64,000 nt of DNA from Gammaproteobacteria bacterium (GCA_965213995.1 OZ243929.1:1439236-1503235); one strand, 5' to 3'; shown: positions 7,883 through 62,420, counted from the first letter of the stretch. Numbers and translations are program-made. The notes: generated from the sequence alone by a model not told the origin.

Positions 7883-7989
7883 GCCCGCTGCTTGCATCCG
7901 CCTCGCGGGAGACGCATGAACCCATCCATGGGGCTCGGCTGGGGCATCCTGCCCCAGACGCTCCCGCAAGGCGGATGCAAGCAGCGGGC
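7883..7989 (-). repeat. Family-1 intergenic palindromic element, copy a
   Basis: Outer arms gcccgctgcttgcatccgcctcgcgggag / ctcccgcaaggcggatgcaagcagcgggc (1 mismatch) enclose the conserved core gagacgcatgaacccatccatggggct and an inner hairpin tggggca-tcc-tgcccca. Confidence 0.85.
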
Positions 7990-8021
7990 TTGAGCTGGCG
8001 AGTCATAAAGGATTAGCTTGG

Positions 8022-8133
8022 ATATTGCACCAAGGCGCGCGGATTCCGCGCGGGGTTTTGCCTGTCCTTCGCCGTGCCTATGGCGCAGCGAGCATGCGCG
8101 CGCAAGCAGGCAAAAGGCCAGCGCGTTCCGCAT
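8022..8133 (-). repeat. Family-2 intergenic repeat, copy 1
   Basis: Contains ccgtgcctatggcgcagcgagcat, the reverse complement of atgctcgctgcgccataggcacgg. It shares the flanks ttggtgcaatat and tgcggaacgcgc with the copy at 23530-23629. Confidence 0.7.
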
Positions 8134-8224
8134 CAGGCAGGAAGCGGGGAATACGGGCGTAAGCTATTGACTAAGCGGAAAAATTAGGGAGGCAACAAGC
8201 GGCTTGGCGCAATATCCGGGTAAA

Positions 8225-8330
8225 GCCCTGTGCTTGTCCCTGCCCTGCGGGAGCGTCGGCGGCAGGAGCCGCCGCCGAGCCCCATGGATGGGTTCATGCG
8301 TCTCCCGCAGGGCAGGGACAAGCACAGGGC
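8225..8330 (+). repeat. Family-1 intergenic palindromic element, copy b
   Basis: Arms gccctgtgcttgtccctgccctgcgggag / ctcccgcagggcagggacaagcacagggc are perfectly complementary. Inner hairpin ggcggc-agga-gccgcc, core gagccccatggatgggttcatgcgtctc. Confidence 0.85.
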
Positions 8331-8405
8331 GAGGGCAGGCACCCAGCTGTGCGATATCTAGGCTAGCAGAGGCTATCCGATGCCTGCGCGAGCGGACGGC
8401 GGGCC

Positions 8406-61100: not shown

Positions 61101-61512
61101 CGGGGTGCGGGGCCTGCTGGCTGCTGGTTGCAGCCGGACCGATCCGGCTCTGCGCCTAGCCTGCCGGTGGCTGCTGGACCGCCAGCGGGAGGATGGCGGA
61201 TGGGGCGAACACCACAGCGGCTGCTTGCCCGGCACTTACGTGGAGCATGAGGAAAGCCAGGTCATCCAAACCGCTTGGGCATTGATCGCGCTTTTAGAGG
61301 CGGGCGATTCCAACTGGGCGGCGCTTTCGCGCGGCGCCCAGTTCCTGCTGAGAACGCAGCAAGAGGATGGCGGATGGCCCAAGCAGGATATGGCGGGGGT
61401 GTTTTTCCGAACCGCGCTTCTGGACTACGTGCTCTACCGGCAGTATTTCCCTTTGCATGCGCTGGCGCTGTTCGAGCGCCGTCAGGCGCGCTTGGATACG
61501 GCAAGGTCGTGA
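58150..61512 (+). CDS. Fusion protein: squalene monooxygenase (epoxidase)-like FAD domain plus oxidosqualene cyclase
   Basis: N-terminal domain: YDIAVVGAGPVGS, GEWLHPPG (compare the SQMO motif GELLQPGG) and GDAAGHYHPMTAMGMT (compare GDAxNMRHPLTGGGMT). C-terminal domain: multiple QW repeats (QRDDGAWEGE, QNRDGGFGSYE, QASDGSWRGVWG, RQREDGGWGEH, QQEDGGWP) and the catalytic GGWHGWPVSDCTAEAV. One uninterrupted 1120-aa ORF. Confidence 0.85.
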   Translation: MKQSSSMPSYDIAVVGAGPVGSVCALAHARKGARVALLEANPRAVRRLAGEWLHPPGARALRNLGVDLDTQLPSCAGRGFVVFPDDGGESIVFNYPDEAPGLVCEHETLVGRLRETIEREPGIDYLAQARVREVGGRQLGYTFDGSNQRLTAGRIVGADGRMSVVRKSLGLSAELMTSSRMLGLVLNDVHLPLEGYGHLLLGGPGPILIYRVAEERIRLIVDIPLDHWAPGDPVGLLLDAYAPLVPEEVRAAFVQALRSGRFRAAASSLRPRVTYGSPDRVLIGDAAGHYHPMTAMGMTLGFGDAIALAESANFEEFSNRRFLDTRAPELLAMGLYEVFADHRDEATMLRHAVYRNWRANDAFRERTVGLLACEDTSLSSLTLAFGATVLRSVAGEIPLSYKASVWRRPLDLVQRLAVRLGWALVGVRDLQKAKSANGSMQPQPSHPLAHAFLVSMPARSGAAKSVQSKEPAPPDPETAVRRAAKRLVGLQRDDGAWEGEMVWCPMLTAQYVLLHHILGRPLGDARRRSVLRQFERSRFAQGQWGMHDHSPPNLFVTTLVYVAARLLGVERDDPLIEPARAFMQTEGVASIPSWGKFWLALLGLYGWRGVNPVLPELWLLPRWFPLHPSNWYCHTRLIYMAMAAIYARRFVAPATPLIASLREELYPQGFSSVNFSAARNLLRQGDLFARPSVWLRAGYAMARLYDRLHIRRLRARCVKSIIPRIRWELNSSSHTNISPVSGILNILALWLRDPNDSDGLKALEKLEDWIWDDEEHGARVTGARSASWDTGFALQALSAAAKVEDTGSAMQNAADFLAAQQINVSFEGFREAFRADPKGGWCFAGGWHGWPVSDCTAEAVLGLVAARGDAADRAAIANAVAFMLRSQNRDGGFGSYEARRSRVPLEWLNPAEMFGESMTEHSFVECTASCLAALAAAGRHFPDLADDSVSAAVSRADAWLRRTQASDGSWRGVWGVQFVYGTFFGVRGLLAAGCSRTDPALRLACRWLLDRQREDGGWGEHHSGCLPGTYVEHEESQVIQTAWALIALLEAGDSNWAALSRGAQFLLRTQQEDGGWPKQDMAGVFFRTALLDYVLYRQYFPLHALALFERRQARLDTARS

Positions 61513-61525
61513 GGGGCGCCCGAGA

Positions 61526-62269
61526 ATGATCCGCACACGGGCCCGGACAACTGCTGACCACACCCACGCCGCCGCTAGTCAGGGGGAAGGCGTTGCGGTG
61601 CCGGCGGGCGTGCTCCTGACGCTGATACTGGCCGTTTTGGCTTTGCCCGGCCTTGCGGCGCGCTATTGGGCCGACGGCCATCTGAGCTTGGTTTATTCCG
61701 TCCTCTGCGTGTTCTTTGCCGTTAACTTTCTTATCTGCTGGTGGGAAATTTGCCTCTACTTCCGCCGCGACTATATCGAAAAGCGCGCCCGCTACTGGCG
61801 GCAGCACCGAAAGGAAACTGGCCGCTCGCCGGTGCTGGATTTTGTTCTTTCCCGGGTGCCGCTCAAGCGAGCGTTTTCGCTCACTGTTTGGGCCAACGTT
61901 TGGGCCACCTACGCCGAATATGACGGCTCGTACGCGGACCGCCGCAGCTACGGGTTCAACGTCGATGTCGCCAACGGCTTCGCAACGCCGCTGCCCACAT
62001 TGGCGCTCTATGCGGCCTACGCCTTCGAGTTCATTCCGGCCCTTGCCGCAGGCATTCTTGGGGCCATGCTGTTTTGGCAATTCCTCTACATGACCTCCGC
62101 GTATCTTCTGAGCTTTGCGGTAGCGAAGCGCTATGAGCGCCTCAGCGGCCGGGAAATTTGCATCTATATTCTGGCAATGAATTCGGTATGGATACTGTGT
62201 CCGATTTTGGGCCTCTTCGTATCGATCGACCTGATCGTGAGCGGCAGCTACAGCGCCTTGGGATACTGA
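61526..62269 (+). CDS. Polytopic membrane protein, EBP/EXPERA-like (candidate sterol Delta8-Delta7 isomerase)
   Basis: About 4-5 TM segments. A by-eye match to the emopamil-binding-protein pattern: FAVNFLICWWEICLYF (EBP: FIHLVIEGWFVLYY), VWATYAEYDGSYADRRSY (EBP: LWKEYAKGDSRY) and ILAMNSVWILCPILG (EBP: VFMNALWLVLPGVL). Confidence 0.5.
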   Translation: MIRTRARTTADHTHAAASQGEGVAVPAGVLLTLILAVLALPGLAARYWADGHLSLVYSVLCVFFAVNFLICWWEICLYFRRDYIEKRARYWRQHRKETGRSPVLDFVLSRVPLKRAFSLTVWANVWATYAEYDGSYADRRSYGFNVDVANGFATPLPTLALYAAYAFEFIPALAAGILGAMLFWQFLYMTSAYLLSFAVAKRYERLSGREICIYILAMNSVWILCPILGLFVSIDLIVSGSYSALGY

Positions 62270-62316
62270 ACCAGAAGCCTCCCGCAGCCGGCCCCAAAGC
62301 CGCACAGCAGTTAAAG

Positions 62317-62420
62317 CCCGGTTCTCGGCCCCGCCTCGTGGGAGTGTCGGCGGCAGGAGCCGCCGCCAAGCCCCATGGATGGGTTTATGCGTCTCCCACG
62401 AGGCGGGGCCGAGAACCGGG
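62317..62420 (+). repeat. Family-1 intergenic palindromic element, copy g
   Basis: Arms cccggttctcggccccgcctcgtgggag / ctcccacgaggcggggccgagaaccggg are perfect. Inner hairpin ggcggc-agga-gccgcc, core aagccccatggatgggtttatgcgtctc. It lies between convergent genes. Confidence 0.85.

Follow-up and report, generated by a model that had tools for sequence, protein, structure and literature searches.

A family of intergenic palindromic repeats was characterised in a 64,000 nt stretch of DNA from Gammaproteobacteria bacterium (GCA_965213995.1 OZ243929.1:1439236-1503235), the whole of which is referred to here as the window. The family is real and apparently undescribed, and its copies share a branched, nearly invariant core that is carried on a long stem whose sequence changes from copy to copy. 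The stem is apparently kept complementary by templating of one arm on the other at the DNA level, through template switching or intra-hairpin conversion, as judged from the pattern of its substitutions, and selection on the folded RNA or single-stranded DNA (ssDNA) is likely for the core. The element would offer an unusually clean natural case of two forces acting on the same 100 nt, DNA-level homogenisation of a palindrome and purifying selection on its core.

The architecture of the element was defined using an alignment of 54 canonical copies, ungapped in the arms and restricted to well-paired copies. The total length is ~130 nt, consisting of a 5' tail, a long hairpin and a 3' tail. The outer stem (P1) contains 29 bp, with a range of 29-31 bp, and terminates in an invariant GGAG/CUCC. 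A second helix (P2) stacks directly on P1 and comprises the closing pair Y30-R55, a G-C pair, a conserved T·C mismatch, a variable 7-bp stem and a loop that contains GGA in 52 of the 54 copies, across at least eight stem types. P3 follows directly after P2 and is invariant, with the strands AGCCCC/GGGUU, one G·U pair included, and the loop CAUGGAU; the sequence CAUGGAUG is present here in 54/54 copies, so that every P3 loop contains GGA. A linker of 7 nt, YAUGCGU, then returns to P1. The tails outside the hairpin are short, asymmetric and conserved by subfamily, examples being 5' CGCCAGC-TAAA with 3' GAGG-N-AAGCAC and 5' ..CGTA with 3' GGCGGAATCGAAGCG. The orientation of the core relative to the tails was fixed in all 18 informative copies, which carry the TAAA 5' tail, and a flip-flop inversion of the core was rejected on this count.

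A covariance model built from the 54 copies and run with filters off across the entire window gave eight sites and no further copy, equivalent to about one copy per 8 kb (Table 1). These are exactly the sites listed in a preliminary description of this DNA. The five canonical copies scored 105-119 bits, a relative at 47725-47824 48 bits, a variant at 14728-14849 38 bits and a partial copy at 53738-53782 16.5 bits. Five matches to the 30-nt core with 0-1 mismatch were found at 7907-7936(-), 8277-8306(+), 19456-19485(-), 47916-47945(+) and 62368-62397(+), compared to 0 in shuffled sequence. An inverted-repeat scan was headed by the element arms, which measured 26-33 nt and were 91-100% complementary. 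The fold of each canonical copy was a single long hairpin of approximately -95 to -100 kcal/mol, with z values of -8.9 to -11 relative to shuffles on either strand.

The preliminary description had given outer arms of 20-25 nt, a length that is revised here to 29-31 nt when GGGAG/CTCCC is counted. Its other structural claims agreed with the present data: the arms differ between window copies at 7-17 of 25 positions, the compensatory inner-hairpin variants ggcggc/gccgcc, ggcgac/gtcgcc and tggggca/tgcccca are all present and covary, and the recurring spurious peptides SPMDGFMRLP and PHGWVYASP are translations of the core. Every copy is flanked by genes with Pfam-supported products, in keeping with the intergenic placement described, and copies a, b, d and g do lie between convergent genes. 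Copy f, which had been called degenerate, is so, with the added detail that it has no 5' arm and that its core contains a 31-nt hairpin insertion. A coding role for the core was also examined; in the frame PPSPMDGFMRLP all three of its common variable sites fall at synonymous third positions, a coincidence within chance, and the arms vary freely, so this candidate was rejected.

The covariation of the stem was strong. Pairing on the named structure was observed in 98.1% of alignment cells compared to 43-50% when the partners were slid, and changes on both sides of a pair accounted for 565 cells compared to 136 in shuffles. An invariant core with copy-specific arms and a large excess of compensatory changes, as first proposed, is therefore what the family displays. 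Double changes were present at 25 of the 29 P1 pairs and 6 of the 9 P2 pairs, and the pair Y30-R55 was split evenly between CG and UA, 27 sequences each, without exception. Only 3 G·U cells were found among the ~1,350 in variable stem pairs. Because the alignment had taken only well-paired copies, an unfiltered set of 80 distinct copies anchored on the core alone was counted over 23 stem positions; 46 copies had no mismatch, 15 had one and 2 had two, the remaining 17 being clearly hybrid, tandem or truncated. Close paralogs, taken as copy pairs that differ at 1-5 stem positions, gave 274 fully compensated differences against 63 one-sided ones, and 133 of the 274 were transversions. The mean arm difference between copies was 13 of 25 positions, and each subfamily has a consensus from which its arms have diverged.

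RNA families under structural selection are normally rich in G·U pairs, and transversions have no route via a wobble intermediate. The Watson-Crick-only and transversion-rich compensation seen here, between paralogs as well as the orthologs described below, argues for DNA-level arm-to-arm templating, and RNA-level selection on the long stem is disfavoured. Three explanations had initially been offered for the repeat: intra-hairpin gene conversion, selection on a folded structure, and a short mobile core that enters pre-existing palindromes. The near-absence of G·U cells, the transversions and the compensated ortholog changes make the first of these the best fit. The second stands in part, being disfavoured as RNA for the long stem but likely for the core, whose mismatch, G·U pair and GGA loops would not be maintained by homogenisation. 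The invariant wobble pairs gave contradictory evidence as to strand. Very strong covariation statistics are evidently possible without RNA-level selection, and the near-absence of G·U pairs is diagnostic of this situation and a warning for RNA-motif hunters.

Several loci (given here as L numbers) from different metagenome-assembled genomes (MAGs) are syntenic, which allowed orthologous copies to be compared. Copy g of the window and L081 have flanks that are 93.5% identical and differ by 6 changes in the arms and 0 in the core, the window copy being perfectly paired and the L081 copy having 5 mismatches. The flanks of L022, L028 and L049 are 84-90% identical and their cores are identical in all three, but 5 compensated stem changes separate L022 from L028 (4 are transversions), and at 2 further positions L028 is still in a half-finished G·T state. 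For L054 and L076 the flanks are 92-95% identical, with 1 core change and differences at ~9 of 25 arm positions, L076 being fully paired and L054 containing a single mismatch, and the same behaviour was observed for L007 and L024. Overall, orthologs with flanks 84-93% identical had 0-1 core change, compared to a divergence of 7-16% in flanking coding DNA over the same interval. Since the orthologs differ by compensated changes, the stems must be altered and re-perfected after insertion with the core left nearly unchanged.

The elements are also polymorphic in presence. Filled and empty sites were identified in the pairs L029 and L014, and L051 and L067. The intergenic region between pyrD and a DUF4124 gene measures 593 nt in the window, where it holds copies a and b, compared to 67 nt in L086 and, with an extra gene after pyrD, 56 nt in L085; these two loci share synteny with window 1-19 kb and have no element in this region. 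The region between the thiolase gene and glyQ, which holds copy c, measures 216 nt in the window and 29 nt at the empty site in L086. No palindrome was present at the empty orthologous sites, and thus the whole element, with arms and tails, was gained at these positions, rather than a core entering an existing palindrome. Arms derived from the target were rejected as well, since the empty sites are without arms. No consistent direct repeat was found in the empty/filled pairs, which are 8-14% diverged, so that the exact ends and any target-site duplication cannot be read base by base at the junctions. Some orthologous intergenic regions contain different subfamilies or opposite orientations (L004/L052, L051/L067, L069/L071), a class in which doubly filled sites are over-represented because the loci were chosen for containing the core. 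The ortholog of copy a in L084 is filled but remodelled, with a P4 module and a different P2, and identical arms are found with different core types in L045 and L065.

Scanning species-representative genomes with a 25-nt core pattern gave at least 83 loci from about 15 genomes. Most of the listed loci are in gammaproteobacterial MAGs with many copies per genome (r_cahl1, CAR4, SB0673, RHO1, COS2), in Ca. Foliamicus and in complete chromosomes; the MAG hosts are taken to be sponge-derived from these isolate names. Over 60355-64000 the window matches a contig of the MAG 'Gammaproteobacteria bacterium CAR4_bin_12' at 93.5% identity, and the host is taken to be a sponge-associated gammaproteobacterium related to it. 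A few copies are present in Colwellia marinimaniae, Colwellia sp. TT2012 and an uncultured Colwellia, with genomes of 38-41% GC. In these the 27-nt stretch AGCCCCATGGATGGGTTTATGCGTCTC is identical and the stems are entirely different, so that the same core is shared by lineages of 64% and 39% GC. A metagenome scan for Colwellia-type copies gave 3 matches, too few for a separate covariation test, and Pfam analysis of the genes flanking the Colwellia copies gave unrelated functions and no common partner. The core is unchanged between orthologs and between bacterial orders and is therefore under selection, and its conservation across orders points to a recognition partner, be it an enzyme that mobilises the element or a host protein (e.g. 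CsrA).

Other databases gave no relative of the element. No match to the core was obtained by blastn against plasmids and phages, and a pattern scan of IMG/VR gave 0. At gathering score the whole window gave 0 matches to Rfam 15, and relaxing the cut-off to E <= 10 added only generic miRNA-precursor models that scored a third of their thresholds; a tRNA/tmRNA scan found none. A self-cleaving ribozyme was rejected, the element being dissimilar to every Rfam ribozyme model. No description of the element was found in the searchable literature by sequence, by topic or under 'Foliamicus'. An exact-protein look-up of the pyrD and glyQ products of the window returned no record.

The relation of the elements to genes was examined for 72 classifiable copies using rough gene calls based on GC content at third codon positions (GC3). 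In 54 cases the 3' side of the element faces a gene 3' end, and in the other 18 it faces a gene start. Of the copies, 26 lie between convergent and 6 between divergent genes, and between tandem genes the element was antisense in 28 cases and sense in 12. Consensus scans found no promoter-like or canonical terminator-like site coinciding with any copy. Intrinsic-terminator-like sites numbered 12 compared to 11.8 in shuffled sequence at 7000-20000 and 26 compared to 18.9 at 46500-64000, giving no enrichment, and sigma-70-like promoter matches were scarce in the same two regions; the organism may rely on other 3'-end signals.

On balance we modestly favour a non-autonomous interspersed repeat similar to REPINs (hairpins of repetitive extragenic palindromic, REP, sequences) or to miniature inverted-repeat transposable elements (MITEs), with a self-perfecting stem and a selected core. 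Under this model whole elements, arms included, would be gained and lost at intergenic sites, mostly beside gene 3' ends, perhaps moving via a hairpin intermediate. After insertion the 29-31 bp stem would be held perfectly Watson-Crick by copying of one arm from the other, either by template switching when a quasi-palindrome is replicated or by a comparable conversion within the hairpin. Any point mutation would be erased or transferred to the opposite arm, so that the arms would drift at a roughly neutral rate with complementarity kept. The branched core, comprising P2 with its GGA loop and pyrimidine·pyrimidine mismatch, P3 and the linker, would be subject to purifying selection, most likely as the sequence- and structure-specific recognition site of a trans-acting factor. 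Candidates for this factor are a mobilising enzyme acting on the folded single strand or a conserved host protein. The model has precedents, as template switching homogenises inverted-repeat arms in proteobacteria (PMC5941160, PMC8604942; also PMC7202029), and common compensatory changes and tandem clusters have been described for REPIN hairpins (PMC3116915).

Several observations weigh against this model. No Y1/HUH-like open reading frame (ORF) was found by phmmer in the six-frame ORFs of ~730 kb around the elements, a weak search made with three provisional RAYT / IS200/IS605 TnpA (Y1) seeds and limited to DNA around the elements; the best E-value, 0.47, was noise. All-against-all ORF clustering gave no multi-copy transposase-like family in the loci. 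Neither target-site duplications nor exact ends can be read from pairs as diverged as those available. Ortholog differences could partly represent replacement of whole hairpins by ectopic conversion from a paralog. Spacer inversion is expected from template switching, and 0 of the 18 informative copies have a flipped core. REP-type elements co-diverge with their own transposase, and strict invariance of the core across orders is unusual for such elements and would suit a functional RNA or a host-protein site equally well. Finally, the gene-orientation bias depends on the rough gene calls.

The conserved loops and junction with covarying stems form a classic RNA-family pattern, and the covariation might instead reflect RNA folding of transcribed copies, in which the GGA-loop three-way junction would serve as a dispersed CsrA/RsmA-binding decoy, as a regulatory site, or as a structure that stabilises or terminates 3' ends. 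The CsrA site is A(N)GGA in a hairpin loop, with a SELEX consensus of RUACARGGAUGU, and it is resembled by the loops of the element, which carry GGA in nearly every P2 and the constant CAUGGAUG in P3; a relative of the family retains two GCCAGGAUGGC hairpins. Conservation of the mismatch and the G·U pair within the core helices, invariance of the core across orders and clustering of copies at gene 3' ends (26 convergent compared to 6 divergent) also fit an RNA, and since there is no excess of canonical terminators some other 3'-end structure might be needed. Such an origin of the covariation nevertheless seems fairly unlikely, as the variable stems are nearly free of G·U pairs, half of the compensated changes are transversions, and no promoter-like site lies beside any copy. 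No Rfam family was matched, the generic miRNA-hairpin matches being far under threshold. The element is mostly antisense between tandem genes, and therefore read-through RNA would mostly bear UCC rather than GGA loops. A density of one copy per ~8 kb, together with presence/absence polymorphism and tandem arrays, is the usual picture for repeat DNA. The csrA gene was not found in the sampled DNA around the elements, a result that is uninformative. A related interpretation, which we put forward tentatively and also regard as unlikely, keeps the self-perfecting palindrome and makes the core a functional three-way junction, its two CA-NGGA-UG loops and mismatch forming a dispersed CsrA/RsmA-type RNA sponge or regulatory tag, or an ssDNA site for a highly conserved protein.

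It is also conceivable that the arms are perfect at birth, one arm and the core moving together and the second arm being made by fold-back (snap-back) priming, with no correction in place, so that a perfect copy would merely be a recent one. Mismatches are bimodal, with 46 perfect copies compared to 17 badly mismatched or hybrid ones. In tandem arrays a unit of tail, left arm and core is repeated before a single right arm (L011, L048, L009), 3-4 times in L011 and L048, and L016 contains the mirror form. However, orthologs in genomes that are 7-16% diverged are each perfect or nearly so and yet differ by scattered compensated changes, which requires correction or replacement after insertion, and the arms have a constant length of 29-31 nt with defined tails on both sides. 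Formation of perfect arms at birth alone is thus very doubtful.

Ectopic gene conversion among paralogs could overwrite hairpins or cores with no need for arm-to-arm copying. Identical cores would then be a product of concerted evolution, and orthologs could bear arms that differ and are nonetheless perfect. It would account for the ~9 of 25 arm positions that differ between L054 and L076 despite flanks 92-95% identical, for the different subfamilies or opposite orientations at L004/L052, L051/L067 and L069/L071, for the same arms with different core types in L045 and L065, and for the P4 module and different P2 gained by the L084 ortholog of copy a. As a full explanation it is nonetheless very improbable, because it leaves unexplained why every donor was already perfect and why the core is identical in Colwellia and the sponge symbionts, and because the differences among L022, L028 and L049 are scattered single positions in homologous arms, half-finished G·T states included. 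Ectopic conversion probably contributes, as in the mosaics L045 and L065 and in the L084 ortholog of copy a. Movement of the core alone into the loops of pre-existing palindromes such as terminators, the third of the initial explanations, would suit the modular loops in similar stems and the presence of the P4 module at the same core position in two different copies, but is extremely improbable given that the empty orthologous sites are palindrome-free, that the arms have subfamily consensus sequences in common and that the asymmetric tails outside the arms have a fixed orientation to the core (18/18).

Table 1. Positions and anatomy of the repeat copies in the window; coordinates are counted from its first nucleotide and MFE is the minimum free energy.
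Copy	Type	Position	Strand	Arms (P1)	Score (bits)	Details and setting
a	canonical, subfamily A	7883-7989	-	7883-7911 / 7961-7989, one mismatch	118.6	5' tail CGCCAGCTCAA at ~7990-8000; 3' tail GAGGACAAGCACCC at ~7869-7882
b	canonical, reference anatomy	8225-8330	+	8225-8253 (5') / 8302-8330 (3'), 100% complementary	119.3	MFE -99.6 kcal/mol, z = -8.9; P2 8254-8277, CGTCGGCGGC-AGGA-GCCGCCGCCG with internal T·C mismatch; P3 8278-8294, AGCCCC-AUGGAU-GGGUU; linker CATGCGT 8295-8301; 3' tail GAGGGCAGGCACCC 8331-8344
c	variant	14723-14854	+	14723-14748 / 14829-14854	38.4	P2 is a larger nested hairpin GGAGCCACTGCGCGCCAATGGCTTGGCGCTCAGTGCGGAAC; core diverged, CCCCACGGATGGATT; CTCTT instead of CTCCC
d	canonical, subfamily B type (TGTC...AAGCCCC; P2 loop AGGACA)	19430-19541	-	19430-19460 / 19511-19541	104.8	between convergent acyltransferase and gyrB genes
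relative	loop is a large P2-type hairpin alone, without P3	47721-47828	+	47721-47753 / 47796-47828, GGGAG/CTCCC	47.8	
e	canonical, P2 GGCGAC/GTCGCC	47864-47969	+	47864-47892 / 47941-47969	111.6	between msrB and the htpG 3' end, antisense to both; 3' tail GGCGGAATCGAAGCG
f	degenerate	53668-53775	-	3' arm and tail kept; 5' arm lost		core split between GGGTTC and ATGCGTC by the 31-nt hairpin module TTGACCTATGCAGGTCAAGCTTCAAGTAGTC (element strand; 53709-53739)
g	canonical	62316-62421	+	62316-62344 / 62393-62421, 100% complementary	115.4	between squalene epoxidase-cyclase fusion gene and convergent amine-oxidase gene

The loop region of the family is modular: among similar stems P2 may be small or large, and P3 and the 31-nt P4 module may each be present or absent. 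Relatives without P3, similar to that in the window, occur in L030, and L054:3700-3880 carries the two GCCAGGAUGGC hairpins. The 31-nt module of copy f was found at the identical core position in the L084 ortholog of copy a; this ~31-nt mini-hairpin, GACTACTTGAAGCTTGACCTG.A.AGGTCAA, lies at the junction of GCAT and GAACCC on its strand at window 53709-53739 and L084 ~7050-7080, in two genomes, and could mark a subfamily or be a very small insertion nested in the core. Only a minority of copies have GTAG at the 5' foot (e.g. L005, L006, L044, L054, L082). In subfamily B the 3' end of the core and the right arm form the first unit of a 42-43-nt tandem repeat. The downstream units consist of GGRTTCRWGCGTCTCCYG followed by ~24 purine-rich nt (L054:5501-5602, L005:406-491, L075:1225-1297), and the later units of these short arrays have no pairing partner. 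The longer arrays, in which only one arm and the core recur, are located at L011:1400-1850 (-), L048:6290-6700, L016:1480-1990 (-) and L009:2480-2920 (-) with periods of 96-107 nt, and L053:320-451 contains a head-to-head pair of cores with one common P2.

The intergenic region between pyrD and the DUF4124 gene is as a whole a mosaic cluster. The 235-nt spacer between copies a and b (7990-8224) consists of fragments of related repeat modules, with GAAGGACAGGCAAAA..CCTTGGTGCAATATCC at ~8020-8075 (-) and GGCGCAATATCC at 8206-8217 (+), and resembles a bacterial interspersed mosaic element (BIME). These fragments belong to a second repeated module, GAGGGACAGGCAAAA-N-CCCGCGCGG-N-CCTTGGYGCAATATCC, which adjoins elements in several genomes (L001:4492-4543, L025:4464-4515, L029:~4010-4061 (-), L048:6652).

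The window is chromosomal and contains housekeeping genes, among them a pyrD-type dihydroorotate dehydrogenase gene, glnA, thiolase, glyQS, gyrB-recF-dnaN-dnaA, rnpA-yidC, mnmG and htpG. The orientations of the copies are -,+,+,- to the left of the dnaA region and +,-,+ to the right, with no tie to replication direction among these 7 copies. The origin neighbourhood at 19682-32116 contains gyrB, recF, dnaN and dnaA (-) followed by rnpA, yidC and mnmG (+), and oriC is probably near 26.4-26.8 kb or beside mnmG; a 4-kb GC-skew profile gave no clean switch here. A gene for an AAA_14/DUF4143 ATPase, a family often found in mobile or defence contexts, is located at 45404-46618 (-), ~1.1 kb from the element pair at 47721-47969, and no link to the repeats was seen. 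A sterol-type gene set at 53722-63734 includes a squalene/phytoene synthase (53722-54726), a 1,120-aa fusion of squalene epoxidase and squalene-hopene/oxidosqualene cyclase (58150-61512) and a flavin amine oxidase gene on the minus strand (62448-63734). Such a fusion of epoxidase and cyclase in a gammaproteobacterial sponge symbiont may be relevant to sterol synthesis by bacteria in sponges. The repeats themselves add a high-density family to sponge-symbiont genomes that are otherwise known only as MAGs.

Among known systems the element works most like the REPINs mobilised by RAYT transposases. It shares with them a ~100-nt hairpin, many extragenic copies, compensatory changes, an asymmetric tail, tandem clusters that are ordered and take in flanking sequence, and persistence at orthologous sites (PMC3116915). 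The REPIN architecture is nevertheless reversed, as the ends of a REPIN (the REP 16-mers) are conserved and its middle is variable, whereas the present element has an invariant middle and a stem in which 25 of 29 pairs vary. GTAG is also not shared across the family, the sampled DNA around the elements yielded no RAYT, and REPs are lineage-specific, unlike a core that is identical across bacterial orders. Nothing searched gave a known REP/BIME family with a RAYT partner.

Bacterial MITEs and palindromic repeats (Correia/NEMIS, ERIC/IRU, RUP, BOX) are likewise short non-coding intergenic repeats that can fold into long hairpins, and are often co-transcribed with neighbouring genes. To our knowledge the element has no sequence similarity to any of these. 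The terminal inverted repeats of MITEs are conserved, match a parent insertion sequence (IS) and make duplications, but the inverted repeats of the present element are its most variable part, and neither a parent IS nor a target-site duplication was seen for it. The suggestion that the repeat is the opposite of a MITE is correct for the arms, which vary, but not for the outermost tails (5' CGCCAGC-N-A, 3' GAGG..AGCAC), which are semi-conserved.

Template switching at quasi-palindromes (PMC5941160, PMC8604942, PMC7202029) predicts perfect Watson-Crick arms in which any substitution is copied free of selection, as observed for P1. It is however a process and not an element family, the published cases are mostly short inverted repeats, and its by-product of spacer inversion was not observed here. 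The attC sites of integrons and the subterminal hairpins of IS200/IS605 resemble the element in that part of the stem is free in sequence and in a possible recognition of the folded single strand with conserved imperfections, in this case the T·C of P2 and the G·T of P3. Unlike integron attC, the element has no R''/R' sites (RYYYAAC/GTTRRRY) at the stem base, no cassette array and no intI, and is dispersed among housekeeping genes; unlike IS200/IS605 it has no paired left-end and right-end hairpins, and its orientation is not tied to replication (7 copies). CsrB and RsmZ share the loop GGA in CA-NGGA-UG contexts, of which the element has two, ~20-30 nt apart. These are single small RNA genes, each with a promoter and terminator of its own and a large number of GGA sites, whereas the element exists as hundreds of dispersed two-site copies, mostly antisense, with no detectable promoter. 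The element therefore behaves most like a REPIN but departs from the defining architecture of REPINs and from the features of MITEs, and is apparently an undescribed form of interspersed palindromic repeat.

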